From Leptospiraceae bacterium (GTDB lineage Bacteria > Spirochaetota > Leptospiria > Leptospirales > Leptospiraceae): a stretch of 64,000 nucleotides of DNA. How positions within the stretch are numbered: the stretch's first letter is position 1; the number at the start of each line of letters is the position of its first letter. The stretch lies in assembly GCA_016708435.1 (NCBI GenBank), contig JADJFV010000035.1, positions 1-64,000 of the forward strand, given 5' to 3'. A program made the position numbers and the translations under genes. The notes under the pieces are model-generated. The model did not search any database and was not told where the DNA came from. It saw only the letters and a list, made by a program, of their open reading frames with translations. Positions 32,468 to 63,243 of the stretch are shown here, in pieces.

Positions 32468-32530
32468 TTTTAAACTCCTTAGAGGATAAATTAACTTATC
32501 CTCTACAACTTTTTTATATTCCCGTTTTCA

Positions 32531-35500: not shown

Positions 35501-35596
35501 CAAATAGAACACAATAGTGCTTAGTATGACGAGGAAAAATATAACTAATCCATATCCCAGCCTAAGCTTCGTTGAAATTTTTAAATCCTCTAACAT
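32531..35596 (-). CDS. Methyl-accepting chemotaxis protein with very long poly-HAMP array (1021 aa)
   Basis: TM1, periplasmic helical domain, TM2, then ~500 aa of alternating HAMP units (e.g. [37 protein letters not shown], a textbook P...I..G.....GD...I...LN HAMP). The C-terminal ~330 aa are nearly identical to the upstream paralog. Confidence 0.9.
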
Positions 35597-36411: not shown

Positions 36412-36969
36412 ATGAAAAATCTTTTAGATGCGATTAACTCATTTATTCAAGTAAAAGAAAAAACAAAAAAAGCAATTCAATCTAAAACCGCATTTATTAG
36501 CATCTCCAAAAAAGAAATCTTATTAAGTCATGGGCAAATAGCCGATAACCTCTACTTTATTCGCAAGGGTTTGTTTCGGGGATTCTCTATGCACAAACGA
36601 AAAGATGTTACGAATTGGTTTGCGAAAGAAAATGAATTTGTAACTTCTATGTATTCTTTTGTGTCTCGAAATCCTTCTCTCGAAACTATTGAAGCCTTAG
36701 AAGATTCAGAGCTTGATTTTATTTCTTACAAAGATCTAAATGAACTGTATTCCACGTATGCAGAATTAAATATGCTCGGTCGAATCTTTATTGAAAAATA
36801 CTATGTTGAGTTAGAGGAAAGAGCCAACTCGTTTCAGTTTCAATCGGCTAAAGCTCGTTATGCGCACTTCCTAGAAAAGAATTCAACCTTGTTTCGTCGG
36901 GTTAAGTTGGGTCATATCGCATCCTATCTCGGAATCACAAAAGAAACTTTGAGTCGAATCCGAACTTGA
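36412..36969 (+). CDS. Crp/Fnr-family transcriptional regulator
   Basis: cNMP-binding fold (GQIADNLYFIRKGLFRGF) and C-terminal HTH (HIASYLGITKETLSRIR). Confidence 0.8.
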   Translation: MKNLLDAINSFIQVKEKTKKAIQSKTAFISISKKEILLSHGQIADNLYFIRKGLFRGFSMHKRKDVTNWFAKENEFVTSMYSFVSRNPSLETIEALEDSELDFISYKDLNELYSTYAELNMLGRIFIEKYYVELEERANSFQFQSAKARYAHFLEKNSTLFRRVKLGHIASYLGITKETLSRIRT

Positions 36970-45787: not shown

Positions 45788-47440
45788 ATGTTCCAGCTTG
45801 ACTTAGTCAATAAACTGAAAATAAACAACGTTACCGGGAGGCCTGTAATATTATGCGTAGACGATGAGTTGATTATTCTATCCTCTCTCAGTCAACAATT
45901 GATGCGCAAATATGGACAGGAATTTTCTATTCAAGCGGTGGATAATGCAGAGCAAGCATTGGATATTGTCCTAAAGTGCAATGAGGATAATACTGATATA
46001 CCTGTAATAATATGCGATCGTCTAATGCCTCTTATGAGTGGAGATGAATTACTAATTCAGATTCATAAGACTAATCCTGATACTAGAAAAATATTACTTA
46101 CGGGTCAAGCTTCTACTACGAGTATTAGTAATGCTATTAATAATGCTAACCTTTATAGATATATTTCTAAGCCATGGAGCAACGAAGAGCTATTATCCTC
46201 TGTCGACGAGGCTCTCGGTGCCTTTTACAATGACCGATTCTTAGAAGAAAAAGCATTAGAGCTAGAAAAAAGTCTTCTATTTGAAGAAATCAAATACAAG
46301 AATCTAGTCGAACATATGTCCGGTGCAATTTATATAATGACTGCTGATTTAAGTAGACAATTTCTATTTCACAGTCCGCAGATTTCCAAGATAACTCATT
46401 ATTCAAATGATGAGTTTACGTATGAATTGTGGCTAAGTCGGATTTACCCCGAAGATAGAAATAGGGTTTTAGGTAAGTTTGAATCTGTTACGTTTAATTC
46501 TAAAAGTTTTTTGATAGAATATCGTTTTTTTCGAAAAGACAATGAAATGATTTGGTTAGAGGAAGATATTACCTCAATTTATAAAGATAGACAACCATTC
46601 CTATTTCAGGGAATTCGAAATGATATAACAAATCGTAAACGTGCTGAAGTTAAGTTAAAGTTATATGCTGAAGAAATTGAAAAAGTAAATCAAAAACTTC
46701 TAAAAGCATTCGACCAGGCAGAGCAGGCAAATAAATCAAAATCCGAGTTTTTAGCAAATATTACTCATGAATTTAACACACCGTTGAATTCGATTTTAGG
46801 ATATTGTCAATTACTCGAGATGGAGCAGATTGGTAAATTAAATGAAAAGCAAAGCAAGTTTGTTTCTTATATTTACGAAAGCGGCAACCACTTGTTAGCC
46901 CTCGTTAACACCATTCTAGATTTTTCAAAGATAGATGCTGGCAGAGTGTTAATAGATAAAACTAACTTCGATCTCAATGCATTAGTGAAAGAAGTCATCA
47001 ATTCACAAGAAGCATTAGCAAGCCAAAAAAATATTACAATAGAATTAGATGTCGATAGCAGCAGAGACTATTTTATATTTGCCGATAGAACGAGAATAAA
47101 GCAAGTTTTGATCAATCTAAGTAGCAACGCGATCAAGTTTACTCAAAATGGTCGTAGTATTGGTTTTAAATTATATCAAGATGCGGATAACACCATATTG
47201 AAGTGCTGGGACGCTGGTATAGGTATTCCTAAATCTGAAGTTGTCCGAGTCTTTGAACCGTTTGAACAAATTCGAAATGAGTTTACTGCCAAGACGAAGG
47301 GAACCGGGCTCGGTCTTTCTATTGTGAAAAGCATTTTAGATTTACATGGTTTTTCGATTCAGTTGGAAAGCGAAGAGTTGAAGGGAAGCACATTCACGAT
47401 CACAATAGGGCAAACACCTATTTTGCTCTCGAAGACTTAA
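45788..47440 (+). CDS. Hybrid response regulator / PAS histidine kinase (REC-PAS-HisKA-HATPase_c)
   Basis: N-terminal REC (ILCVDDE...CDRLMPLMSG), PAS, H-box ITHEFNTPLNSILGY, G-box GTGLGLSIV. Confidence 0.85.
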   Translation: MFQLDLVNKLKINNVTGRPVILCVDDELIILSSLSQQLMRKYGQEFSIQAVDNAEQALDIVLKCNEDNTDIPVIICDRLMPLMSGDELLIQIHKTNPDTRKILLTGQASTTSISNAINNANLYRYISKPWSNEELLSSVDEALGAFYNDRFLEEKALELEKSLLFEEIKYKNLVEHMSGAIYIMTADLSRQFLFHSPQISKITHYSNDEFTYELWLSRIYPEDRNRVLGKFESVTFNSKSFLIEYRFFRKDNEMIWLEEDITSIYKDRQPFLFQGIRNDITNRKRAEVKLKLYAEEIEKVNQKLLKAFDQAEQANKSKSEFLANITHEFNTPLNSILGYCQLLEMEQIGKLNEKQSKFVSYIYESGNHLLALVNTILDFSKIDAGRVLIDKTNFDLNALVKEVINSQEALASQKNITIELDVDSSRDYFIFADRTRIKQVLINLSSNAIKFTQNGRSIGFKLYQDADNTILKCWDAGIGIPKSEVVRVFEPFEQIRNEFTAKTKGTGLGLSIVKSILDLHGFSIQLESEELKGSTFTITIGQTPILLSKT

Positions 47441-48981
47441 AATAGACTTTCTTCTTTTCCTTCTAGTTTTGCAATATACTCTAAATACTCAGTCATCCTA
47501 AATTTTTTCTTTGTTGAGTCAGAAGACATATAGCGTAAATTTCCGTGAACATTTCTTTCGGGAAACCACGGTCTATCAAATAGTCCAAAACACCAGAGGA
47601 TGCCTGTATAAGAATTTGGATTTCTTCCATCATACGCATACTTGTTATTAAACTCTTCTAGTGTATCAAATGCTTCTTGGTAAGTCTTAGACCATTCAAT
47701 GACTTTTTTTCCCCAGAGCATTCGCATATAATTGTGCATTCTACCCGTGATAATTAATTCTTTTTGTGCAGCATTCCAGAGCGGATCATGGGTATTTGCT
47801 GCTTCAAACTCTTTTCTTGTATAAAGATAATCACGCTTATCCGTTGCATGTTTGACTAGGATTTTTTGAATCCAATCAGGTAGTATTCTAAGGTCTTTAT
47901 TGAATTCTTTTTTAGGCCAGAAGAGTAGGTAGCCTATATCTCTCCATGTTAGAAGTTCATCAAAATAGGAGTTTAGACTTTTATTCTTGCCGTAGAAAGT
48001 ATCTTTGTCTCCTTTCGCGTCAATATTTAGTTTATCAGGTGCCCATGTTTCTTTTTCGTCTGCACTTAGGCAGTGGGCAATAATTGTCTCAACGCTGATA
48101 TGTCCGAAATGTAAATAGGGAGACATCGCGCTAGCGGGTGTTAGTTTGGGGGAATGCGGATTCGATCTATTATCCCCGTAAAGTTTCAAATTATTCTTAA
48201 TAAAGTAATTTAATTTTTCTAATGCTATTTTAGATCCGCCAATCATATCGGGAACAGGTTTTATAGAATTCGAAAAACTTATCTTAGAAAGAAATTTATC
48301 TATGTCTTTCTTTTCTATTTTAAATTCTTTGAATGGTGCTTTGGAAATCTTTTCTACTTGAATCAAGTCTTTCTTTGAAATCTTTTCCTTTGCTCTATGA
48401 ACATAGGCTTCTGCGAAGAGTCGGTGAATTCTAGGACGAAGGACGCGGGCGGCAGAGGCATGTTCTCCGTAAAGAGAAATTGGAATGATGCTGTTTGAGT
48501 CTACTACGATAAGCTTGCAGTCTACTTTCTTGGATAATTTATCAATTTGTTCCGGGATGATAAATGCGGGAAAATCATCTGTAACCACAACACACGCTTT
48601 ATCGGAGATTTTTCGTAAAATTCCTTTTGCCGGATTATCAGGAGTTTCCACAAAGCTCCAGTAATTTATGCCAAGCTTTTCTGCGGTCTGGCGGTTATCG
48701 CACATTCCTTCTAATATGAATTTATGAAGTCTCTCTGAATTCCATTTGTAATCAGCTCTCAGTCCTTCGTAGACTACTAACTCTTTGCCTAATTTTTTTC
48801 CTAGAAATATTGCATAATCGAGAGCGTGGTTGGATTCAAATCTTCGATAGGCTTGCATCCAATATAAAACATAAGTTCTATTTTCTAAGATTGGCTTTTG
48901 GTTTGTATCACGGACTCGGACTTTATTATACTCAGAGAAATTCATAACCCATTGGAATAAAATGGGGCTAGAATACAACAC
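47437..48981 (-). CDS. phr: Class II CPD photolyase (cryptochrome/photolyase family)
   Basis: YVLYWMQAYRRFESNHAL, SPYLHFGHIS, THDPLWNAAQKELIITGRMHNYMRMLWGKKVIEW and YDGRNPNSYTGILWCFGLFDRPW are collinear with Methanosarcina-type class II photolyase. Confidence 0.85.
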   Translation of the reverse strand: MLYSSPILFQWVMNFSEYNKVRVRDTNQKPILENRTYVLYWMQAYRRFESNHALDYAIFLGKKLGKELVVYEGLRADYKWNSERLHKFILEGMCDNRQTAEKLGINYWSFVETPDNPAKGILRKISDKACVVVTDDFPAFIIPEQIDKLSKKVDCKLIVVDSNSIIPISLYGEHASAARVLRPRIHRLFAEAYVHRAKEKISKKDLIQVEKISKAPFKEFKIEKKDIDKFLSKISFSNSIKPVPDMIGGSKIALEKLNYFIKNNLKLYGDNRSNPHSPKLTPASAMSPYLHFGHISVETIIAHCLSADEKETWAPDKLNIDAKGDKDTFYGKNKSLNSYFDELLTWRDIGYLLFWPKKEFNKDLRILPDWIQKILVKHATDKRDYLYTRKEFEAANTHDPLWNAAQKELIITGRMHNYMRMLWGKKVIEWSKTYQEAFDTLEEFNNKYAYDGRNPNSYTGILWCFGLFDRPWFPERNVHGNLRYMSSDSTKKKFRMTEYLEYIAKLEGKEESLF

Positions 48982-49012
48982 TAAATCGGAAAGTTAAAAT
49001 TCTATTCTGGGA

Positions 49013-50215
49013 CTAATTACTCTTAGCTGCATTTACAAAATACATGTCGATTTCGCCTTTATTCTTGGCTGCGACCTTGCCTCTGTATTCACAAATAAAA
49101 TTATCTTTAATCAATTCATAGGTGTATCCTGAAATATTCACTCTGCCCGGAAAGCCAGAAGATTCCATTCGACTGGCAACGTTTACCGAATCTCCCCAGA
49201 CATCATAGCAGAATTTCTTAGTTCCTACAACTCCTGCGACGAGTGGACCGGAGTGAACTCCAATCCGAATTTCCCATGGTGGAATTCCTTGTTGGGAATT
49301 GATTGTATTTACGATGTTCATGTAGTCTGCTAGTTCAAGTCCCGCCTTAATGATATTAACCGCATGATTTGGGTCTTTCTCTGGAATACCGGCTACGCAC
49401 ATGTATGCGTCACCAATTGTTTTAATCTTTTCAATCTTATAGATTTGCATGATAGAATCGAAATAACAAAAAAACTGGTCTAGTTGATGAATCAATTCTT
49501 CTGTTGTAAATTTCTCCGATAATTTGGTGAATCCTTTAAAGTCCGTAAATAGAATACTCGCACTTTCATAAAATACCGGCTTTGCTTTGCCGGTCTCCCT
49601 TAATTCCTTTGCTACTCGCTTTGGTAAAATATTTAACAACACTTCTTCTGTTTCTTTTTTACTCAGATCTAAAGATTTGTTTAATTTCTTTAATTCAATT
49701 TGAGCATTCACGAGTTCATTGTATTGCTTGAGAGAATTTTCGTAGGTAGAAAGAAGCATATTTAAAATATGTAAACGGTCTGCTACTATCTCAAAGTTTT
49801 TCCCCGCATAATTTATATTAATCGGAGTAACATCTTCATTGGTTGCAATTGGATTATTTAGAAGAGTCTCCACTCGATACATTAAGTATTTTTTGTCATA
49901 GGGCTTGGTGACGTAACCATCTGCACCGCATTCGATGCCTGTAATAATATCTTCCGGTCTAGAAAGAGAAGAGCAGATAACAACGGGTATGTCCTTTAAG
50001 GCATCGTTATTTTTAATTTTTCGACAGAGTTCAAATCCATTCATGTCTGGCATCTCAACGTCTGTTATGATGAGAGAAGGTTTTTCTCTTTCGACTAACG
50101 CATAGGCTTCTGCTCCATTCTTTCCCCAAAACACAGTATAGCCTTCGTCTACTAAGATACGCCTGAGCATTACACCTTGCACGGAACTATCTTCTGCAAA
50201 AACAATTGTGTGCAT
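49013..50215 (-). CDS. Response-regulator receiver fused to class III adenylate/guanylate cyclase
   Basis: REC (IVFAEDS...IITDVEMPDMNG...KP), coiled-coil linker, and cyclase homology domain (ILFTDFKGFT...KTIGDAYMCVAG...VWGDSVNVASRMES). Confidence 0.85.
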   Translation of the reverse strand: MHTIVFAEDSSVQGVMLRRILVDEGYTVFWGKNGAEAYALVEREKPSLIITDVEMPDMNGFELCRKIKNNDALKDIPVVICSSLSRPEDIITGIECGADGYVTKPYDKKYLMYRVETLLNNPIATNEDVTPININYAGKNFEIVADRLHILNMLLSTYENSLKQYNELVNAQIELKKLNKSLDLSKKETEEVLLNILPKRVAKELRETGKAKPVFYESASILFTDFKGFTKLSEKFTTEELIHQLDQFFCYFDSIMQIYKIEKIKTIGDAYMCVAGIPEKDPNHAVNIIKAGLELADYMNIVNTINSQQGIPPWEIRIGVHSGPLVAGVVGTKKFCYDVWGDSVNVASRMESSGFPGRVNISGYTYELIKDNFICEYRGKVAAKNKGEIDMYFVNAAKSN

Positions 50216-50217
50216 CT

Positions 50218-51261
50218 CTAAATCAATCCTAGTATATGCGATGCTATTTTATCAACTGGAAGTTGAATATCTAATGCGCCAATTTCTTTTGCGACTTTCG
50301 GCATTCCATAGACTACACAAGTTGATTCTGCTTCCCCGATTGTTTTTCCACCTAAGTGTTTAATGGTGAGTATCCCCGTTGCTCCATCATCTCCCATGCC
50401 TGTTAGGATTACTGCGAGAGTTTTATCTCCGGCGTATTTGGCGAGAGATTTGAATAACACATTGACTGAGGGACAATGACCATTAAACGGTGCTTCATTG
50501 GATACTTGTAATTTGCCGTCAGATCCTATCACCATATGTTTTAAGTTCTGCGGAAAATACACAGTGCCCGCAACAGGAGTTTCTCCTTCGTGCATGATTT
50601 TTACTTTCAGTTTTGTATTTTGTCCAAGCCAGGAAACCATACTCTCAATGAATCCATCACTTATATGTTGGACGCAAAGTATGGGAAGAGGGAACTCTCT
50701 AGGTAGTCCACCGAGCACTTGTTGTATTGCATTTGGTCCACCTGTTGATGCACCGATACCGAGGAATTTTATTACTTGTTTTTGAGAGCTAGTGATTGTA
50801 GGAAAGCTTCCTGTATCAACTCCAGGATGTTTCTTAGTTTTTTTATAAACGGGGATACTCTTGATTACGCGTATTTTTGAAACGAGTCTATCGCGAATCA
50901 TATCATAGTCCTTTTCTGTTCCGCCTAATGGTTTAGGAAATACATCGAGTGCTCCAGCTTCGAGTAATTGAAATACATTCGTTTCGTTTTCTCCCTGAAG
51001 CGCCGCACTTACAACAAGAATCGGTTTGGGGTTAGTCTCCATTAGCTGCTTTGTAAATTCTAGTCCATCCATGACTGGCATCATGAGATCAGTGCAGATC
51101 ACGTCTGGATTTAAAAAGCGAACCTGGTCTAATCCTTCGCTTCCATTCTTTGCAGTTCCGATTACCAATACTTCGGAACTCTTATCTAAAATTCTTTTTA
51201 ATATGTTCAAGACGATAGGCGAATCATCGATGAGCAATACTTTGATTTTATTTTCTATCAT
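50218..51261 (-). CDS. cheB: CheB methylesterase/response regulator (second copy)
   Basis: REC plus GASTGGPNAIQQVL methylesterase domain. Confidence 0.9.
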   Translation of the reverse strand: MIENKIKVLLIDDSPIVLNILKRILDKSSEVLVIGTAKNGSEGLDQVRFLNPDVICTDLMMPVMDGLEFTKQLMETNPKPILVVSAALQGENETNVFQLLEAGALDVFPKPLGGTEKDYDMIRDRLVSKIRVIKSIPVYKKTKKHPGVDTGSFPTITSSQKQVIKFLGIGASTGGPNAIQQVLGGLPREFPLPILCVQHISDGFIESMVSWLGQNTKLKVKIMHEGETPVAGTVYFPQNLKHMVIGSDGKLQVSNEAPFNGHCPSVNVLFKSLAKYAGDKTLAVILTGMGDDGATGILTIKHLGGKTIGEAESTCVVYGMPKVAKEIGALDIQLPVDKIASHILGLI

Positions 51262-53717
51262 CTAAGCCTCTTTATGATTTGTAACAAATCTTTTCTATCA
51301 AATTTTGTTTTTACTAAATACGCGTCAGCACCTGCATCCATTCCCTGTTTTATGTTCTCTTCTGAGCCTAGGGAAGTAAGCATGATGACGGGAGTGTTTT
51401 GTAATTTTGCTGAGTCCTTTATTTTTTTCGTAAATTCTAATCCATTCATCTTAGGCATTTCCATATCTGTGATTACTATGCTAAATTTCTCTGTGTTTAA
51501 TTTGGACCAACCGTCTTCTCCGTCGATTCCAATTTCTACATCGAATCCTTCTGTCTCTAGAATCCTCTTTATTTGCACACGGGTTGTAAGAGAATCATCA
51601 ACTACTAGAATTTTAAAATTAGATTCTTCTTGGTTCTTGTCTTCAACCATTATAGAAATATTGGTTTTAGTAATCGTCTTTACTAATTCTTTAGGGTGGA
51701 GGATAATGCATATTTCCCCCGAATCAAGAATCGTAGCACCGGATACATTTCTAACTTTTTTTAATATACCTTCGAATGATTTAATAATGACTTCATTTTT
51801 TTCGATTACCGAATCTACTACTAGTGCAAGTTTAATTCCATCTGATTGTATGAACAAACAAGGAGTAGGCGCTGTTATTTTCTTTGCTGTGATTTGAGCA
51901 ATCTCTAAATAATTTGCAAGCTGAACTAGATGCACTGGTTGTTTTTCTATAACGACTGTGCTTTGTCCTTCTAAAATGAAAATATCTTTCGGGTAAATGG
52001 TTTTACTGAGTATTACATTATCCGCCGGAAATCCAAACTTTTGATTTCCCACTGAAATGATTAATACATGAGTGGTAGAAAATTTAATCGGGAGCTTGAT
52101 TCTAAATGTTGTTCCTACGCCTAATTCGGATTCGGTGTCAATGTCTCCTTTGAATTTTTCTACAAAGCTTTTTACTACATCCATTCCTACACCACGACCG
52201 GAGAGGTTGGAAACATTGCTTTGAGTAGAGAATCCATGTTGGAAGATGATGGAGTAAATTTTTTTATGATCCATTTGACTCAATTCATCTTGATTGTATA
52301 AACCTTTTTCTATTGCCTTGCTCTTGATTTTTTCTATGTCGAGTCCTTTTCCATCATCTTTGATTTCTATTAATACAGTATCACTTTGACTTTTTCCAAA
52401 TAGAGTGATAGTGGCTAATTCAGGTTTGCCTGATTTGGTTCTAGCTTCTTTTTCTTCTATTCCATGGTCTACAGCGTTTCGGATAATATGCATCAAAGGA
52501 TCTTTTAATTCTTCTAGAATTTGTTTGTCAACGGTTGTCTCTCCACCTTCGATAATGAGTTGCACATTTTTTCCAGTCTCTCTGCTTAAATCTCGAACAG
52601 TTCTATGAAACAAGCTGAACACAGTTGAAACTGATAGCATTCGTAGGTTGTAGATTCGTCTCTCTATTTTCATGGAAGTGAGGCTAAGACGTGTTGTATC
52701 ATTACTTAGATTTTTTTTGAGTCGATTGATATTCTCTTCTAAGTTTTCGAGCTTACTTGTTTCTTTGGTGTTTAATTCTTGTAGCTGTGTGAGAAAAAAT
52801 TTATGCTTAGGACTCAGATCAGTTTGCTTTGCGAAATTGCTTAATAGATTTCTAGTTTCCTGAACTGTGCGTAAAAGCTCTTCGTAAGAATAATATGCAT
52901 CACCCACTTCTTTGACTCGATTTAAAATTCTATTCTTGGTTACAATCAGTTCACCCGTTTGCACCATGAGAGCATCTAACTTGGATGGATCCACGCGCAT
53001 CGTATCCGTTTTCTTTTGCTCTATAGAATTTGATTTATTCTTTTCAGTATCCCCTTCTTTTTTAGAGGGAGTATCTACAACGGATGCTTTTTTGCTTTCA
53101 ATGATTTTATCAATCTGATCTTTTATCTCAGGCTTGGGAGGATTAGGTGTAGCCGTTAGTTCTTTTGGTGGTGGTTCTGGAATAACAGTATTATCCGCAA
53201 CAGGATTGGGCTTGGGTTCTACTTTTACTTCTTGCTTTGGAACTTCTGGCTTTACTTCTTCGGGTTCTTTTTTTTCTACTGTGATGATACTTGCTTTATT
53301 TTCAGAGGATTTTGTTTTATTGGAGATGTCATTCTTACTTTCAATTAATTTATCTAAAACAGAAATAACATCTACATCGGAGCTTTCGCCTGTAACCGCT
53401 TCATTGACTAGTTTCTTGATTGCGTCAATGCCTTCATAGTAAATGTCTATTTGCTTAGGGGTAATTTGGAATTCGCCGCGACTTGCTTTTCCTAAAACTT
53501 CTTCGAAAATATGAGCAATCGATTCTATATCAGAAAGACCGAGCATACGGCTAGCACCTTTCATGCTATGAGCCTCTCTGAATATTAAATGCAGAATATC
53601 ATAGTCATGAGGGTTTTTTTCTAAGGTCAATAGGCATTTTTCGATTACTTGCATATGCTCTTCACTTTCTATCTGGAAGAGATCTCTTAGTTCTTGGTCT
53701 TCGATCATAATGCCCAC
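51258..53717 (-). CDS. cheA: CheA histidine kinase with C-terminal receiver (CheA-CheY fusion)
   Basis: HPt (HSMKGASRMLGL), Pro/Lys/Glu-rich linker replacing P2, P3 (RVDPSKLDALMVQTGELIV), HATPase (HGIEE, GRGVGMD), CheW-like P5, and REC (ILVVDDS...VITDMEMPKMNG). Confidence 0.9.
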   Translation of the reverse strand: MGIMIEDQELRDLFQIESEEHMQVIEKCLLTLEKNPHDYDILHLIFREAHSMKGASRMLGLSDIESIAHIFEEVLGKASRGEFQITPKQIDIYYEGIDAIKKLVNEAVTGESSDVDVISVLDKLIESKNDISNKTKSSENKASIITVEKKEPEEVKPEVPKQEVKVEPKPNPVADNTVIPEPPPKELTATPNPPKPEIKDQIDKIIESKKASVVDTPSKKEGDTEKNKSNSIEQKKTDTMRVDPSKLDALMVQTGELIVTKNRILNRVKEVGDAYYSYEELLRTVQETRNLLSNFAKQTDLSPKHKFFLTQLQELNTKETSKLENLEENINRLKKNLSNDTTRLSLTSMKIERRIYNLRMLSVSTVFSLFHRTVRDLSRETGKNVQLIIEGGETTVDKQILEELKDPLMHIIRNAVDHGIEEKEARTKSGKPELATITLFGKSQSDTVLIEIKDDGKGLDIEKIKSKAIEKGLYNQDELSQMDHKKIYSIIFQHGFSTQSNVSNLSGRGVGMDVVKSFVEKFKGDIDTESELGVGTTFRIKLPIKFSTTHVLIISVGNQKFGFPADNVILSKTIYPKDIFILEGQSTVVIEKQPVHLVQLANYLEIAQITAKKITAPTPCLFIQSDGIKLALVVDSVIEKNEVIIKSFEGILKKVRNVSGATILDSGEICIILHPKELVKTITKTNISIMVEDKNQEESNFKILVVDDSLTTRVQIKRILETEGFDVEIGIDGEDGWSKLNTEKFSIVITDMEMPKMNGLEFTKKIKDSAKLQNTPVIMLTSLGSEENIKQGMDAGADAYLVKTKFDRKDLLQIIKRLR

Positions 53718-53729
53718 GCAAAATACCTG

Positions 53730-55715
53730 TTAGCCTTGCTTATGACCTTCGACTAGGTCTCTTAGTTTGCGGGTTGCATCGCCAATTTGGTTGACGCCGA
53801 CTTTTGTTTGTGCAATGCCACTGGCAGATTCTTGTGAGCCTCGATTGATTGAATTCATCGCGCTTACAATTTCGTTCATGGAAATAGATTGTTGTCGAAT
53901 GTTGATAGAAATTTTCTCAATGCTATCAAATACTCCGGCAACGGAATGATTAATTCCAGAAAGAGAATCTAATACTTTAGATCCTAGTCTTGAGCTATCA
54001 TCTGCTCGTTTCACTCCTTCTTCTGTTGCCATGACAGTAGAGTCTGTTGCTTTTTTGATTTCCGAAATGATTTCTTGAATCTTTAGGGCTGACTTCTTGC
54101 TTTCATCGGCGAGCTTTCTGATTTCAACGGCTACTACCTCGAAGCCTTTCCCGTTCTCACCAGCTCTCGCCGCTTCTACTGCTGCATTGAGTGCGAGCAT
54201 ATTGGTTTCGTTTGCTAATTCACTGACTAATCCGATTATATTGCTGATCTGACTATTTTTTTCGGAGAGTCGTAAGATTTGTTCCGCAATGCCGGAAACT
54301 CGTATTTTTAAAGTGTCAATGGACTGAATCATTTCTAGAACCGAATTATGCCCGTTAACCGCCATATCCTGTGCATCTTTTGCTTTCATTGTGACACTCT
54401 GTGATTCTTCGGCAGAGAGGCGAGAAGAGTTACCAATATTACTAATCGTAGTAGTTGTTTGGTTGACTGAGGCAGACTGCATGTTAGCCGTTCTTTCATG
54501 GTTGTCAATGACAGAGCTAATTTCTCGAATGGAAGTAGATAGAATATTTACAGATTCTTGAATAGGCTTACTTAAAATTCTAGATAGGAAATAACTTGCT
54601 ATCGCCATGATTGAAAGAACAATCAGAGTTATAAAAAACATTTGGTTTTGAAAGCTAGAGAGAGCAGCAAGTGTTTCGTCATAATCTAAGTCTATGAGCA
54701 GGGCATATTTTACACCGAGTAGTTCTATTGGTGCATAGGCGGTAAATGTTTTCCCACCTGCAATGCCTGTTGTTACGACTATTCCTGATTCGCCGCTAAG
54801 TGCCTTTTTTGCTTGCTCGGTTTCAAATTTCTTTTTTAAGATGCTTGATTCTTTTGCATTGTCTTCGAATTCACTTCTGAGTAAAAAATCAGGACCTACT
54901 AAGAAGGATGTTTCTTTTCTGTTCTTCACAATTGGTTTTCTAATTTTGTTACTGATTTCGTCTAACGGTAGTTGGAATACTAAAATGCCTTCTAATTTTC
55001 CGTCTATAAAAATTCCACTTCCTATAAATTAATTCACCTGGTTATTCGATGCCGCATAAGGCTCGTAATCCACAAGTTGAGCTTGCTGTCCTCCGTCGGG
55101 TGAGTTGATAACCTTTCGATAAAGCTTTCCTAAATTAGAGTCTCTATAAGGTCCGACAGAGAGGCTTGTCATATAATCTTCCTCTTTGGCAACGGTGAAT
55201 AGAATATTTCCAGTCCTTGCATCGATTAAGAATGCATCATAGTAATTTCTTTCTTTGATGATGGAAGAAAAAAAACTAAGTGCTTGTCCGTGCGCTTTGC
55301 TGTATTCAGAATTATCCGCTTCTAAAAGATTTTGTTTGCTTCCGGGTGGATTTGGATTTCCGGAGATGTAGAGTGATTTATAAATATCTTTTGCTCGTTC
55401 AAATCCTCCCATTCTTTCTACTGCTGTTCTCATTTCTAGAAAGCGCTTTGTAGCTGCTACACTTTTTCGAAATATGAATACATCTTTGATTTTATATTCA
55501 AAGTATTCCATGAATTCATTCTTTTTGGATTCGCGGATAATTTCAATTTGCTGATTAGCACCGGAGTAGATGATAGATCTACCAATTACATTTCCAGGAA
55601 TCGCTATAGAAAGAGCGACGACTAGGGTAGAAATAATTGTAAATAGAATAAGTCTCCAAGTGAAATCGAGCCGATGAACGAATGAAATAAGCATATTTTT
55701 CTCCTTAATAACCAA
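53730..55715 (-). CDS. Methyl-accepting chemotaxis protein with periplasmic Cache-like domain, interrupted by one in-frame TAA (55029-55031)
   Basis: 55029..55715 carries TM1 and the first half of the Cache domain. The same frame continues through a single TAA into [26 protein letters not shown]..., then TM2 and the MCP signalling domain ([33 protein letters not shown]). Confidence 0.75.
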
Positions 55716-56739
55716 TACTTTCTTCTACATAAAGTTTTTCATAAGCGAATATTTTTTCTGTGTCAATGAGACCGACACTAAATGAATCATAAAAACAAAG
55801 TCCTTTCATGAGATTTTCCCCAACGGTATTCTTATCCGTGGGGTTACTCAGGATTTGCTCTTTGGAAAGATAAATTACATCAATGAGTTGGTCTACAATC
55901 AAACCAATCATCATTTCGTCAAAGCGAATCACTACAATTTTTTTGTTTTCAATCGATGTGCTTTGTTCTGATTTCAGTAAATAGAGTAAATCAATTAGAA
56001 CTAGCATGTCACCACGTAAATTTACACAACCAGAAATATGGGCGGGCACACAGGGAATTCTAGTAATGCCTTCGCCGTGTGCGAATTCTAGAATGTATTT
56101 TAATTCGATCGCAAGGTATTCATCTTTTAATCGAAACACAACAACAGATAATAAATTAGAATACTCTTTGATATTTGTAGACTGCGAATAATTATTCTTA
56201 CGGCTAATGAGTATTTGCTTGTCTTTTTCGGTTATACCGCTGAATAGCTTTGCGAGGTGAATATCTGAAAATGGTTTAATCCTTTTCGGATCAGACGGAG
56301 GTATATCTAGATTAGTCAATGCTTCTAGATTGATGATTTGTGTGATACCAAATTGAGTTTGAATCACTCCGTCTGTGATTTTGTCTGCAATGATTTCATT
56401 TGAGATGGTTTGTTTTTCATGGGTAAAGTGAATTACATTGTGAACATCATTGATGTGAATACCAAATTTTTTTTTGTCCTGGGTGATAACTAGAATTCTA
56501 TCATTTACAGAATATCTTTTTGTTTTCATACCCTGTCTGAGATTGAGATCAATGATTGGGACAAATTCTCCCCGAAAGTTAAAATACCCGACTACAAAGA
56601 AAGAATTAGACTCGATACGAGTAAGTTCTGGAAGCCAGATGAGCTCAACTACATGAGAGGATTGAATCGCATAGACATTGGACTGAACAGAAAAAACTAA
56701 GAAACTCTCTTGCATAGGTGTATTAACTTTTATAACCAT
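55705..56739 (-). CDS. Tandem CheW-CheW coupling protein
   Basis: Two CheW-like domains (VFSVQSNVYAIQSSHVVELIWL...; VVVFRLKDEYLAIELKYILEF...). Confidence 0.8.
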   Translation of the reverse strand: MVIKVNTPMQESFLVFSVQSNVYAIQSSHVVELIWLPELTRIESNSFFVVGYFNFRGEFVPIIDLNLRQGMKTKRYSVNDRILVITQDKKKFGIHINDVHNVIHFTHEKQTISNEIIADKITDGVIQTQFGITQIINLEALTNLDIPPSDPKRIKPFSDIHLAKLFSGITEKDKQILISRKNNYSQSTNIKEYSNLLSVVVFRLKDEYLAIELKYILEFAHGEGITRIPCVPAHISGCVNLRGDMLVLIDLLYLLKSEQSTSIENKKIVVIRFDEMMIGLIVDQLIDVIYLSKEQILSNPTDKNTVGENLMKGLCFYDSFSVGLIDTEKIFAYEKLYVEESIGY

Positions 56740-58052
56740 ATACCAGATTCTTCGCTAAAAAAAGATTCCAAACTTTCAATATGATATCCTTTGTTTTTAT
56801 AAATCTGCTTTAAGTGTTCATTGTGCTGCAAACAAAACAATCCTGCTTTTCTAACTTTCAGCGATTCAGAAGTATTGTGTAATAGGCTATAAAGACTACA
56901 CAATGTCAAGTAAGATTCTAAAAAAAGAGGATTTAAATAAATAACTTTTTTATAAAGTTCAATCGCTCCATTCCAATTTCCAGAAGCTTCTTTGAGTTGA
57001 CCTTTCAAGAACCAGGCTTCGTGATTGGAAGGATTTGTTTGCAATAACTCTTCAACTAAGTATTCTGCTTCTAATACTTTTCCTGCGTCGGCGAATTCTC
57101 TTGCCTTTGCGAGAGAATCCCTTTCCCAGTTCCTTGATTCTGCAAGAGGGCGTATCGAATTCAGTGGGGAAGGAGTCTGGTTTTTTTCTCTTGCGGGTAA
57201 TACTGTTTTGGCGATAGAGGGCAAAATCGAATCTGCTTTAGGAAGTATTTTTTTATACACCATCGATTTCTGGTATTGAATTGCTTCGAACGATTTGGGA
57301 ATTAAGTGAGCGGCTTCTGAATGTCCTATTAGTAAATAGGCATTATCCACTAAAGCTTTTTCAAATTTTTCTAAAATGATTTTTTTAGAAGGATCATCGA
57401 AATAAATGAAAACATTTCTACAGAGAATCAAATCAAATTCTTTGAAGTAGTTTGAGGTAAATAGATTGCTCTCTATAAATTGAACATGGTTTCGAATAGA
57501 ATCATTGATTCGATAGATATTCTTTTTTTGTGTGAAGTATTTTTTGATTCTGTCTTCTGGAACTCCTCTAAAGGACCAATCCAGATATTCACCAAGGATA
57601 GCCTGCTTAATAGAGTCTCCATTTACATCTGTGGCTAATATGGATATACTCCAATCAGCGGTAAATGGAAGTAATTCGGAAAGTAGAATTGCAATCGAGT
57701 AGGGCTCTTCTCCCGTAGAGCAGCCTGCACTCCAGATACGAATTCTTTTCGAAGCTCTCTTTTGTTCTATGATATGAGGGAGAATGTTCTTTTCTAAAAT
57801 TTCAATCTGACCGGCGTCGCGCAAAAAGTAAGTCTCGGAAATATTGAGAGACTTGATTAGTATCTTCCATTCTTCATTCGAACTAACAGAGTTTTCTCGT
57901 AAAATATCTAAATACATTTCCTCTGATAATTTTTTAAAGAGAGATGATTTTTTTTTGAGAGTATCCAGGTAGAAGTCTACTTTGTCTTCTCCAATATGAA
58001 TTCCTAGCTTTGCTAAGATCGCTTTAGAAATTTCAAGAGAGAAATGATTCAT
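56730..58052 (-). CDS. cheR: CheR methyltransferase with C-terminal TPR repeats
   Basis: CheR SAM-MTase core (RIWSAGCSTGEEPYSIAILL, LCRNVFIYFD) followed by TPR-like repeats. Confidence 0.85.
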   Translation of the reverse strand: MNHFSLEISKAILAKLGIHIGEDKVDFYLDTLKKKSSLFKKLSEEMYLDILRENSVSSNEEWKILIKSLNISETYFLRDAGQIEILEKNILPHIIEQKRASKRIRIWSAGCSTGEEPYSIAILLSELLPFTADWSISILATDVNGDSIKQAILGEYLDWSFRGVPEDRIKKYFTQKKNIYRINDSIRNHVQFIESNLFTSNYFKEFDLILCRNVFIYFDDPSKKIILEKFEKALVDNAYLLIGHSEAAHLIPKSFEAIQYQKSMVYKKILPKADSILPSIAKTVLPAREKNQTPSPLNSIRPLAESRNWERDSLAKAREFADAGKVLEAEYLVEELLQTNPSNHEAWFLKGQLKEASGNWNGAIELYKKVIYLNPLFLESYLTLCSLYSLLHNTSESLKVRKAGLFCLQHNEHLKQIYKNKGYHIESLESFFSEESGIWL

Positions 58053-58347
58053 ATATGCTTGTAATCAATGCAATTTTCGGGCTAACCTCTTTCGAAAATT
58101 TATAACTACTCCTAGTGGATTAACGTTACTCATAAAAATTATCAACTGATTGCCACCGATGAAAAAACGATAAAAAAAATGAATGCAACGTTACAGCGGA
58201 TGTTTAAAAGCCTTCGTATCTTTTATCGGTGCCCTCGGTGGTAATCTTTTATAATTACATGTGGCTGGCTAGATGTATATAGATGAATCCATTTTTTGAC
58301 AATGATTTTGCACATTTTGACTAAAAAAAGAACAAGTATGGATCTAC

Positions 58348-59886
58348 TTACAAAATTTCATATTCGTAATTTACTATATTACGACTGTCTCTTGAGAACT
58401 CTATTCCTATTAGGTAAATATCTTTGGAATCAACCGCTAAAAACTTTTCGTAGTATTTTTTTTCTTTGATCTGTGCAAGGGCGGAGCCAGTTTCGGTGAG
58501 TTCAATTACTTTGAATTCTAATACATATACTTTTTTTTCGAAGAACACGGTCATATCTACTTGACCATGGTTCGTTACATCCTCTGTGCGAACATCTAAA
58601 CCAAGGGCTGCAAAATAACAGTAGAAGATAGATGCATAATAACCTTCATAATTCGCAATAGTATTTTTCCGATACCAGTCATGTGGAATAGAGGCAAAGA
58701 ACGAATAGAAGATATCTTTTATTTTATTTAGGTTGGAATCTTTTAGAAGTAAGTATAACTCTGATGTGTTTTTATTGACTCTATTATTTTTGGATAGAGA
58801 GGAAAGAATAACGCTTGTTAGACTCATCTTAACTTCTTGATTTGGGTATTTTAAAATATAATAGATCTTTGCTCCGAAATTTATTTTTTCCGAAATAGTC
58901 AAATATCCCGTTTGGAACAATAACACTTCTAGTTCAATACTATCCACATCAAACGCTCCCATCTCTTCGTGGGTAACTTGGATATGCTCTATGTTTATTG
59001 TGTTGTAGTTGTTCTCGTGAATTAAATCTAATAGAAAAGAGGGATTTCCCGTTTCAAACCAGAAATTTTTAAATTCTTTGCAATCCAGATAAAGCAGAAT
59101 ATCGAACGGATTATATACTTTATCCCCTAAGAAATTATATCCATTGTACCAAAGTTTTAAATCTTCCCGATTCACATTTACAAGTTTGTCTTCGAAAACA
59201 GATAAATCATTTTCGGTATAACCGCAGATTGTCGCATAACGTTCGTCAATTGTAATATCTTGTAAATTATTCAGTCCGCTAAAAAGATTGATCTTAGAAA
59301 ATTTGGATACGCCTGTAATAAAAACAAACTTTATATGCGCATCAGCACTCTTCATTACAGAATAAAGATTTCGTAAACCATCCCGCATCTCTCTTGCAAT
59401 GTCTTTGTTTGTGATATTATCTAAAATGGGTTTGTCGTATTCATCTATTAGGATCACAACTTTTTCGGAATACTTTTGATTTAACGCTTGAATGAGTTCC
59501 TCAAAAATCCCTGAAATGGAAAGATTTTCCCCTTTGTCAATACTATGTTTTTTGTAATTTGCATAGATAAGTTCCCGAATTTTCTGTTCTAACTCCTGTG
59601 AGTTTTTTAAGACTCCACCCCCAAAGTCAATTCGTATCACTGGATGTTTTTTTTCCCAAATCCAGTTATTTTCAAGGTAGAGTCCTTTGAAGAGTTTTTC
59701 ATTTCCTTCAAATGCTTCTTTTAATGTATCTAGAAATAGGCTCTTTCCAAAACGCCTAGGGCGGGAAAGAAAATAGTATTTTCCATTGTCTACCAATTCA
59801 TGTAATACTTTCGTCTTATCAACATAGTAGTAGTTATTCGAAATAATCTCTGAAAAAGTCTGAATGCCAATGGGAAGTTTCTTCAC
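58348..59886 (-). CDS. AAA-ATPase-like / PD-(D/E)XK nuclease (DUF1703, PDDEXK_9) family protein
   Basis: Walker-A-like RPRRFGKS, VILIDEYDKP, and C-terminal nuclease-like region. This is the intact paralog of the pseudogene at 1400..2890. Confidence 0.7.
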   Translation of the reverse strand: MKKLPIGIQTFSEIISNNYYYVDKTKVLHELVDNGKYYFLSRPRRFGKSLFLDTLKEAFEGNEKLFKGLYLENNWIWEKKHPVIRIDFGGGVLKNSQELEQKIRELIYANYKKHSIDKGENLSISGIFEELIQALNQKYSEKVVILIDEYDKPILDNITNKDIAREMRDGLRNLYSVMKSADAHIKFVFITGVSKFSKINLFSGLNNLQDITIDERYATICGYTENDLSVFEDKLVNVNREDLKLWYNGYNFLGDKVYNPFDILLYLDCKEFKNFWFETGNPSFLLDLIHENNYNTINIEHIQVTHEEMGAFDVDSIELEVLLFQTGYLTISEKINFGAKIYYILKYPNQEVKMSLTSVILSSLSKNNRVNKNTSELYLLLKDSNLNKIKDIFYSFFASIPHDWYRKNTIANYEGYYASIFYCYFAALGLDVRTEDVTNHGQVDMTVFFEKKVYVLEFKVIELTETGSALAQIKEKKYYEKFLAVDSKDIYLIGIEFSRDSRNIVNYEYEIL

Positions 59887-61323: not shown

Positions 61324-62316
61324 TTGGTAAACGATAGAATACTCAATCCAGAAGATAAAAGCAGTGATGATTTATCTTTACGTCCTGATAATCTAACAGA
61401 TTTCATTGGTCAAAAGGATATTCTCGAAAACTTGCGCGTATTCATCGAAGCCGCCAAGAAAAGAGAAGCTTCTTTAGATCATGTATTGTTATCGGGACCT
61501 CCCGGACTCGGCAAAACAACATTAGCCGGTATCGTAGCAAAAGAAATTGGCTCTAATCTAACTGTAACATCAGCGCAAGTCATTTCCAAAGGAGCTGACC
61601 TAGCTCGGTTTCTTACAATGCTAAACGAAAAAGACATTCTATTCATTGATGAAATTCACAGTCTCAATCGAAATCTAGAAGAAATTCTTTATCCTGCAAT
61701 GGAAGACTACAAAATTGATCTAGTAGTAGGAGAAGGAATTACAGCGCAAACTGTGCAGATACCTCTAAAAAAATTTACACTTGTAGGAGCGACTACAAGA
61801 AGTGGAATGATTAGTGAGCCACTCAAGAATCGTTTTGGAATTCAATTTCGTTTAGAGTATTATTCGGATGAAGAGATGGCGCGTATCGTTTCTCGCTCAG
61901 CCAAGATTTTAAATATCCAGATTGATTCAAATGCTGCACTTGAGATTGGTAAGCGCAGTAGGAAAACTCCTCGGATTGCAAATCATTTACTCAAAAGAAT
62001 TCGTGATTTCGCAGAAGTGCAGAATAACGGGCGTATTACGCTAGAAGTCTGTAAAAGCTCTCTACAAAAATTAGGAATTGATCATCTAGGTCTGGACAAT
62101 ATGGATAGACAAATTCTAACTTGTATGATAGAAAGATACAAAGGCGGACCTGTTGGATTAAAAGCGATAGCCGTCATAGTAGGAGAAGAAGAAAGAACGA
62201 TTGAAGATTCCTATGAATCTTATCTCGTTCGTATTGGGCTAATACTGCGAACCCCCGCAGGTAGAATGGCAAGTGAGTTAGCCTATCAACATATGGGCTT
62301 GGAAGGAAAGAAAAAG
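61324..62316 (+). CDS. ruvB: Holliday junction branch-migration helicase RuvB (no stop codon; reads through into the next gene)
   Basis: [14 protein letters not shown] Walker A, DEIH Walker B, sensor/arginine finger regions and the winged-helix C-terminus. The frame continues without a stop into MNKEIF... at 62317. Confidence 0.9.
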
Positions 62317-63243
62317 ATGAACAAAGAAATCTTTTCTTTTGATTTAAACTCACTCGATGAGGATGAACGGCGTTTGCTGCTATCAGCAAGCCTTGTATTT
62401 TTCATGCTCTCTTTTTCTATTGCCCATTTATTTACAAAGAATATGCTCTGGCGTCTTCTCGGAACAGATAGTAATATTGTGGATATGAAGAAAGGCGGAG
62501 AGAATCAAAAAGTCTACGAAGTTCTACTCGAACAAGAATTTACAAACAAAACTAAAAAAGATGAAATCAAAGCTCTCTCGAATGAAGACTCCGCTGGATC
62601 AGGTGGGCTTACCGAAAAAGAAGGATTTCACACAAACTCTCCATTCTACGAATTTATCTATGGAGGAATGCCTAGCTCATCTCCTCAAATGACGCAAAAG
62701 GATTCTGAATCTAAAAAGACAGAAGACGAAATCTATGAAGTGGGAATCTTTCAAAACGATCCGATGATGAAAGTAACTCCACAAAAAACATCTGTATCCA
62801 ATCCGAACACAGGACAGGAAACCAAAATCCCTTTCAACTATCGTTTCCAAAAAGACTTTGAGTTTAGATGGGACGGTTCGAGTCAACTCTCTATTCCCCG
62901 CAAGAAAATGGCTGGTTATGAATACTTCAAGCATATGATAAAACAAATAGAAGAAGGATTTGCAGCACCGGGCGGAGGCAATATCGCCTATCGTGACCAG
63001 GCTGGATTTTTTATTCGAGAAGGAATTAGTCCGGGGGAAACAAAGGTTAGCTTCATGCTAAATGATGCAGGACAAGTAATCGATGTAAAGCAAGTCACTT
63101 CGCAGGGACAAGAAATTGTAGACCGCGCTTGCATGGATTCCCTCCGCGGACAAAACTTCGGTCCTGTTCCAGCAGAGGTAAAAGAACAGGGAATGATCTT
63201 TGGGATTAACTTCGTTTTCCCCGGTCATATCAGATACCGGTAA
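62317..63243 (+). CDS. Membrane-anchored protein with TonB C-terminal-like domain
   Basis: N-terminal TM helix [20 protein letters not shown]. The C-terminal ~80 aa ([45 protein letters not shown]) resemble the TonB_C fold. ATG lies in frame with ruvB. Confidence 0.6.

Follow-up and report, generated by a model that had tools for sequence, protein, structure and literature searches.

A Wsp-like chemosensory gene module with a predicted cyclic AMP output in Leptospiraceae

Chemosensory pathways with non-flagellar outputs are common in genomes, and few of them have been worked out. In the Pil-Chp pathway of Pseudomonas aeruginosa, chemosensory activity alters cellular cyclic AMP (cAMP) via CyaB. 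The best-understood chemosensory pathway that directly drives a second-messenger synthase is Wsp, whose messenger is cyclic di-GMP (c-di-GMP). It is built from the methyl-accepting chemotaxis protein (MCP) WspA, the CheW proteins WspB and WspD, the CheR methyltransferase WspC with its tetratricopeptide repeats (TPR), the hybrid kinase WspE (CheA with a receiver domain, REC) and the CheB protein WspF. Wsp is classed as an alternative cellular function (ACF) system; its kinase WspE acts on WspR, a diguanylate cyclase of the REC-GGDEF type, by phosphorylating the receiver (PMC8846402). ACF clusters typically feature CheR-TPR fusions and multidomain regulators, and the 2012 genomic survey of Munoz-Martinez et al. 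lists a REC-CHD 'mononucleotidyl cyclase' regulator (D8FCI6) in a CheR-TPR cluster of the delta proteobacterium NaphS2; such cyclase domains were noted among ACF regulators (PMC3447774). A direct link from an adapting chemoreceptor array to cAMP has so far been listed in genome surveys. Here we examine such a gene cluster in a 64,000-nt stretch of DNA (the window; AT-rich, ~36% GC) on contig JADJFV010000035.1 of an uncultured Leptospiraceae bacterium.

Seven co-directional genes were found on the minus strand at 47437-58052 (list of open reading frames, ORFs; Pfam; NCBIfam). Six of them, from cheR-TPR to a gene for a receiver-cyclase fusion (REC-cyclase), appear to make up a self-contained module of the ACF kind, with parts matching those of Wsp and with cAMP as the predicted output. 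The seventh, a photolyase gene, is separate from the module, and the receptor gene bears a stop codon. We put the probability of this reading as a whole at about three in four. The features of the locus are as follows.

58053..58347, minus strand: 295-nt intergenic gap upstream of cheR-TPR, the sole long non-coding gap adjoining the module
56730..58052, minus strand: CheR methyltransferase with C-terminal TPR, 440 aa (PF01739, 194.8 bits, aa 73-261; TPR families, aa 305-391)
55705..56739, minus strand: coupling protein with two CheW domains, 344 aa (PF01584, 155 bits, two stretches)
53730-55715, minus strand: MCP, whole reading frame, interrupted by TAA
55029..55694, minus strand: MCP N-terminal fragment with the first transmembrane segment and the first part of a dCache-like periplasmic sensor (from the translation; stop-terminated)
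55029..55031, minus strand: in-frame TAA, codon 222 of the 654-aa MCP
53730..55028, minus strand: MCP remainder with the second part of the sensor, the second transmembrane segment and a signalling domain of ~280 aa, in frame with the N-terminal fragment
51258..53717, minus strand: hybrid CheA-REC with Hpt, dimerisation, HATPase_c, CheW and C-terminal REC domains (Pfam)
50218..51261, minus strand: CheB methylesterase with N-terminal REC (PF01339, 191.9 bits; PF00072; NF001965, 314.6 against a cut-off of 293)
49013..50215, minus strand: response regulator, REC with predicted adenylate cyclase (PF00211 Guanylate_cyc, 177.9 bits; PF00072, 88 bits)
47437..48981, minus strand: class II cyclobutane pyrimidine dimer (CPD) photolyase (solved-structure matches; TIGR00591), adjoining the module and not a member of it
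45788..47440, plus strand: REC-PAS-HisKA-HATPase kinase (Pfam), convergent with the photolyase and outside the Che module

Pfam and NCBIfam confirmed the order, strand and coordinates of the seven genes as given in an original prediction for this DNA. The six genes that run from CheR to the cyclase follow closely on one another, with intergenic spacings of -10, -11, +12, -4 and +2 nt. The photolyase had been placed 31 bp downstream of the cyclase, which holds when its GTG start is taken; from the ATG start chosen by gene callers on conspecific contigs the gap is 67 nt. The 295-nt gap before cheR-TPR is probably the promoter region of the module, to judge from its place. Consensus scans for promoters and terminators between 47 and 60.5 kb returned sites no more frequently than in shuffled sequence.

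The core genes for MCP, CheW and CheA are clustered with those for the adaptation enzymes CheR and CheB (Pfam, NCBIfam), and Pfam shows a hybrid CheA with a C-terminal receiver, CheR fused to TPR and a multidomain regulator. These parts match those of Pseudomonas Wsp one-for-one: the MCP corresponds to WspA, the two CheW domains to WspB and WspD, CheR-TPR to WspC, CheA-REC to WspE and CheB to WspF. Moreover, both systems close with a gene for a receiver joined to a nucleotide-second-messenger synthase, and neither includes a single-domain CheY. The shared logic would be that of a kinase phosphorylating the receiver of an enzyme. The two differ in output, which is GGDEF (c-di-GMP) in Wsp and a predicted class IIIa adenylate cyclase (cAMP) here; Pfam finds no GGDEF domain in the REC-cyclase, so that a REC-GGDEF regulator of the WspR type, the strict mark of Wsp, is lacking. 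They also differ in sensor (four-helix bundle, 4HB, in Wsp; dCache-like in the module), in the CheW proteins (two separate ones against a fused CheW-CheW), in gene order and in host (proteobacteria against spirochaetes).

Other described systems resemble the module in fewer respects. In Pil-Chp chemosensory activity also changes cellular cAMP; CyaB, however, has no receiver, is encoded outside the cluster and is controlled indirectly, and the pathway belongs to the type IV pilus class. The light-regulated LprA of Leptospira kobayashii is a class III cyclase of the same family, whose cAMP rapidly alters the swimming mode (PMC9043183). LprA is not regulated by phosphorylation and is not part of a Che cluster, and it is compared with the module cyclase by the shared catalytic domain alone. 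The NaphS2 cluster, likened here by architecture only, has a CheR-TPR chemosensory cluster with a REC and class III cyclase regulator; it comes from a different phylum and is a single entry in a survey table, given there without analysis of residues, conservation or function. The architecture of a CheR-TPR cluster with a REC-cyclase was therefore already on record (PMC3447774).

The REC-cyclase is made up of a receiver (residues 1-120), a helical linker with a cyclase-transducer motif (147-208) and a class IIIa catalytic domain (214-397). The receiver pocket contains E8, D9, the phospho-acceptor D52, S82 and K104, and the catalytic domain contains the metal-binding D225 and D269, the transition-state pair N345/R349 and the substrate-specifying pair K265/D338. 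It had been noted beforehand that catalytic residues missing on careful alignment would speak against a cyclase output; all six were found to be present, and every listed residue of both domains is invariant in 66 homologues, with position 82 being S or T. The best sequence matches among solved structures are class IIIa enzymes, namely mammalian AC8, AC5 and AC9 and bacterial cyclases of the Rv1625c type. In the AlphaFold2 model (pLDDT 86.7) a hairpin follows the receiver (1-120) and precedes a helix of 50 residues (147-196); a short helix (199-208) and the catalytic domain come next. The short helix carries the cyclase-transducer motif LLNILPKRVAKEL, which aligns with the corresponding segments of AC5, AC8 and AC9. 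The top Foldseek match was the soluble domain of a bacterial Cya (5o5l/5o5k), with a target-normalised TM-score of 0.88-0.91.

Domain content, catalytic residues and transducer element together support the assignment of the REC-cyclase as a class IIIa adenylate cyclase, predicted to synthesize cAMP. Pfam and the retention of the phospho-acceptor Asp and catalytic residues bear out the original prediction that the dedicated receiver is fused to a nucleotide cyclase and is not a flagellar CheY. A Lys/Asp pair marks adenylate cyclases, while guanylate cyclases carry Glu and Cys/Ser at those positions. Of the output first proposed, cAMP or cyclic GMP (cGMP) synthesis, the cyclase activity is thus supported and the K265/D338 pair narrows the product to cAMP.

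Conservation of the locus was examined with tblastn of the window proteins against 14 other-species loci. Nine Leptospiraceae loci (L007, L009, L011, L012, L013, L016, L085, L087 and L091) have all six genes in the order CheR, CheW-CheW, MCP, CheA-REC, CheB and REC-cyclase. L085 is the complete genome of the cultured L. kobayashii (AP025028; cyclase LPTSP3_g20690), L087 a 6.4-Mb genome, and L091 belongs to the metagenome-assembled genome (MAG) GCA_016711485.1. L008, L010, L014, L015 and L017 hold partial copies cut by contig ends. The six genes are therefore kept together across species and genera of the family, and the lack of synteny that could have counted against the proposal is not seen for the module. 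The nearest named homologues are all from Leptospiraceae or Leptospira. Whichever other species is compared, the cyclase ranks first in conservation among the module proteins, and CheR and the MCP sensor half usually rank last; between the window and L009, identity is 77% for the cyclase, 48% for the MCP sensor half and 41% for CheR. The cyclase is always the last module gene, 2-12 nt after cheB in close relatives, and no single-domain CheY was found inside the module in any locus examined. Taken together, the residues and the conservation of the module support a predicted chemosensory pathway with a cyclase response regulator as its dedicated output.

REC-cyclase homologues of ~40% identity from Pirellulales, Bacteroidia and Rhodocyclaceae lie outside Che clusters, either alone or after ordinary histidine kinases, which indicates that the Che wiring is a lineage-specific recruitment of a general type of response regulator. 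A candidate distant Che-cyclase cluster in Ca. Desulfacyla euxinica (L018) was rejected, as the match spans the receiver and linker (aa 4-172) and leaves out the cyclase domain. Four other species have, ~1.2 kb downstream of the REC-cyclase, another gene with an MCP signalling domain; it is 41-42% identical to the module MCP and may encode an additional receptor for the module in those lineages:

L008 3877-4512; L011 12410-13063; L012 12428-13063; L014 9088-9723: extra MCP-domain gene

Within the literature that was searched, no experimental work on a direct Che-to-adenylate-cyclase pathway came to light, and a Che-cyclase module of Leptospiraceae was not described in it. What is added here to the 2012 record is the conservation of the module across the Leptospiraceae and its presence in a genetically tractable species.

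From these parts we infer the following route. The transmembrane MCP with its dCache-like sensor would assemble with the double-CheW protein and CheA-REC, and ligand occupancy would set the rate of CheA autophosphorylation on His50, which lies in the P1 motif HSMKG. The phosphoryl group would pass from CheA to Asp52 of the REC-cyclase and also to CheB. The receiver of CheA itself, in which the motifs DD, D751 and K were read from the sequence, probably takes a phosphoryl group as well and acts as a sink. Phosphorylation of the REC-cyclase receiver would be passed on via the 50-residue helix and the cyclase-transducer motif to homodimeric class IIIa domains, switching on the conversion of ATP to cAMP. 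Methylation of the receptor by CheR-TPR and demethylation by CheB would make the cAMP output adapt over time. The cAMP formed may act on effectors with cNMP or GAF domains; a cAMP-activated diguanylate cyclase is present in L. interrogans (PMC8846402). In the window, a 185-aa cyclic-nucleotide-binding protein in which no DNA-binding domain was detected is encoded at 36412-36969 (plus strand), ~12 kb from the REC-cyclase, and is a possible cAMP receptor.

Several points weigh against this picture. Receiver phosphorylation could inhibit the cyclase as well as activate it. No cAMP effector was found linked to the module, the tie to the cyclic-nucleotide-binding protein 12 kb away being putative. 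The likening to ACF systems draws on gene content and on the 2012 survey (PMC3447774), not on class-specific models for CheA, CheB or CheR. Finally, the receptor gene is interrupted in the assembly, and in the MAG GCA_016711485.1 the CheW-CheW gene is broken as well (L091, 2109-4482): a DDE_5 transposase and a small ORF on the opposite strand split it into pieces of 197 and 136 aa, a second, independent disruption of the module. The interrupted receptor and the split coupling protein suggest that the module may be dispensable or decaying in some lineages.

The stop in the receptor gene was overlooked in the original prediction, which had described a Cache-MCP. The TAA at 55029-55031 ends the ORF inside the periplasmic sensor, and the same frame runs on to a normal C-terminus, giving ORFs at 55029-55715 and 53730-54929. 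The 654-aa MCP gene called on conspecific contigs begins with the ATG at 55694. Codon 222 is TCA (Ser) in five conspecific contigs, four of which have an intact 654-aa gene call, and TCT (Ser) in three other species; in other species the MCP gene is intact. Read on the plus strand, the stop comes from a T at window position 55030, where the conspecific contigs have G. Translational recoding of the TAA was considered and rejected, as a supporting signal was lacking and close relatives encode Ser there. The repaired protein matches PF00015 MCPsignal with 120.8 bits, and Pfam detected no HAMP domain in it. Its dCache_1 score of 28.3 bits is below the cut-off of 45, and the dCache assignment is clearer in the MCP orthologues of L. 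kobayashii and L087. As to the earlier description, the MCP thus stands, the single intact ORF does not, and the Cache assignment is weak. As a separate observation, the signalling arms beside the hairpin tip of the MCP are ~137 and ~142 residues long, or ~20 heptads each by hand count; this was not used as evidence.

As written in the assembly, then, the module has no intact dedicated receptor, owing to the TAA at codon 222. It is a real possibility, somewhat short of even odds, that the module of the window organism was recently inactivated or is decaying, the nonsense mutation having removed the receptor so that no signal reaches the cyclase. The replacement of Ser222 in the sensor domain and the independent transposase insertion in the related MAG both favour such a loss. 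Against it, the remaining module genes are all intact and 99-100% identical to the conspecific copies (96% for CheR-TPR), and the intact receptor allele is present in five conspecific contigs. Six metagenome contigs with 99.2-99.6% nucleotide identity to the window carry the same genes. Across the seven genes the window differs from one of these (L003) by 48 synonymous and 25 non-synonymous codons, with S222* as the sole disruptive change. The predominance of synonymous changes within the species indicates purifying selection on the locus. Of the 25 non-synonymous differences, 18 fall in CheR-TPR, and 16 of these in the linker at aa 269-300. This stretch (57150-57250) is variable between conspecifics while the rest of the module is nearly identical, and it may be a local hypervariable or recombined segment.

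The stop may be a real nonsense allele or a base-call error, and two other anomalies in the window bear on this choice. In a separate Che-like cluster at 25055-35596, CheA is split (27364-29245, minus strand) into an Hpt-only ORF at 28514-29245 and a HATPase+CheW ORF at 27364-28524; an unbroken CheA of 626 aa is regained once one A is taken out of the A6 run at ~28571-28576, which makes the split a +1 homopolymer frameshift, be it genuine or an error of the consensus. A 639-aa ORF at 61324-63243 (plus strand) has RuvB domains at aa 19-324 and, beyond them, a predicted membrane segment and a TonB_C match that is weak. Removal of a single A from the A5 run at 62310-62314 would let RuvB stop at a TGA that overlaps the start codon (ATG) of the gene behind it, and the fusion is probably a second extra-A artefact joining two genes. 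The two extra-A anomalies suggest that the assembly consensus may hold errors, the stop possibly among them, which again speaks against decay of the module. Searched for in JGI metagenome contigs with the variable position left free, a 29-mer spanning the stop codon had no matches, and an exact look-up of the CheW of the separate cluster for conspecific contigs found no record.

Turning from the receptor to the output, the REC-cyclase might instead be a phosphate sink or a side branch, with motility as the chief target of the module, reached via a single-domain CheY from another locus. Members of the Leptospiraceae are motile and have further Che proteins, the window itself holds the second Che cluster at 25-36 kb, and cross-talk between Che pathways is reported for other bacteria (PMC6391922). 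Still, we consider this improbable, as the module has no single-domain CheY at any locus examined, the cyclase is always its last gene at 2-12 nt from cheB in close relatives, and CheA already has a receiver of its own as a potential sink. Moreover, the highest conservation in the module together with invariant catalytic residues would be unexpected for a mere sink. A dedicated cyclase output is thus preferred, and that the enzyme should make cGMP or another nucleotide in place of cAMP is very unlikely: the Pfam family spans adenylate and guanylate cyclases and several good structural matches are guanylate cyclases, but Lys265 and Asp338, invariant in the 66 homologues, are the adenylate-cyclase pair.

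The photolyase gene at the 3' end of the row had been identified as class II, and this holds. All six solved-structure matches (E <= 0.001; observed E 1e-56 to 6e-50) are deoxyribodipyrimidine photolyases, including 8oet, 2xry and 3umv, and we take all six to be class II enzymes. Models for DASH, class I and plant cryptochromes scored 22-38 bits only. TIGR00591 gave 325.5 bits in two stretches, below its cut-off of 550.05, which points to divergence and an insertion of ~30 residues (roughly aa 305-336), not to another family. W402, W423, W430, N445 and W463 align with the Trp triad, the Asn near flavin adenine dinucleotide (FAD) and the active-site Trp of the Methanosarcina mazei enzyme, and all are kept; in M. 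mazei numbering these are presumably W360, W381 and W388 (triad), N403 (near FAD N5) and W421, the spacing having been checked on the alignment. The window protein thus resembles the M. mazei class II CPD photolyase (2xry/8oet) by a full-length match (E 1e-56) and by these residues, and differs from it in the insertion and the sub-cut-off TIGR00591 score. It is predicted to be an ordinary class II CPD repair enzyme. Its orthologues are present across the genus Leptospira, L. interrogans and L. biflexa among them, which fits a housekeeping role in repair.

The photolyase adjoins the cyclase only in the conspecific contigs L001-L006, and in none of the 14 other-species loci was a photolyase found in the 2-10 kb over which those loci extend downstream of the cyclase. 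In the MAG GCA_016711485.1, whose cyclase and photolyase are 88% and 82% identical to those of the window, the module (1.57-1.60 Mb) and the photolyase (0.86-0.88 Mb) lie on the same contig ~700 kb apart. The REC-PAS kinase and VTT/Pyr_redox genes that come after the photolyase in the window also come after it in this MAG. Since the photolyase keeps its own neighbours far from the module in this relative, the arrangement in the window is a junction of two separately conserved blocks, set side by side by a species-specific rearrangement. In the same MAG, Cas3, Cas5d, Csd1 and Cas7, which we take to be a type I-C CRISPR-Cas set, lie directly upstream of the photolyase (L092, 1437-7542), and defence-like genes (NTP_transf_2, AAA_15/AAA_21) follow the cyclase in L091; variable regions on both sides of the junction fit a rearrangement.

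The earlier suggestion of a photolyase/cryptochrome-family gene that is part of the operon and provides a light input, or points to a light-related regulon, can be set aside as highly implausible. The gene does follow the cyclase on the same strand after 31-67 nt, and the gap has no terminator-like hairpin (fold not significant, z = -1.05), so that read-through transcription is possible in the window species, but the adjacency is confined to conspecific contigs, the photolyase travels with its own conserved neighbours, its repair-enzyme residues are conserved, and L. interrogans and L. biflexa have the photolyase while none of their proteins is among the 120 closest cyclase homologues. For this locus the practical value of the analysis is mostly corrective, since the photolyase link is a species-specific accident of gene order and the receptor gene is interrupted.

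The presence of the module in L. kobayashii makes the predicted cAMP output directly testable there, as this species is cultured and transposon mutagenesis, complementation and a cAMP-dependent swimming phenotype are available (PMC9043183). L. kobayashii carries both LprA and the Che-cyclase module, and cAMP from the photoactivated LprA switches its swimming mode within ~1 s (PMC9043183). By analogy, the module could conceivably be a second, CheY-independent route to chemically guided behaviour, in which cAMP pulses from the adapting array would directly bias endoflagellar motor switching. We regard this as unlikely; were it true, cAMP would be a fast motility messenger integrating chemical and light inputs.

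Further genes of the window were also recorded. Upstream of cheR, at 58348-59886 (minus strand), lies a gene for a 512-aa protein with AAA-ATPase_like and PD-(D/E)XK (PDDEXK_9) domains; it holds this place in conspecific contigs only, and in other species it is outside the module. The separate Che-like cluster at 25055-35596 (minus strand) encodes CheW, CheB, the split CheA and a pair of large 4HB MCPs, both of which have several HAMP domains and one of which has PAS in addition; no CheR or CheY was seen among its ORFs of at least 150 aa. It ends with a 415-aa protein whose sole match is HATPase_c. At 22088-24580 (minus strand) an 830-aa protein matches MVP_shoulder (84.7 bits), Vault_3 and, weakly, Band_7, and is a predicted bacterial MVP-like protein, its domains being those of the eukaryotic major vault protein (MVP).

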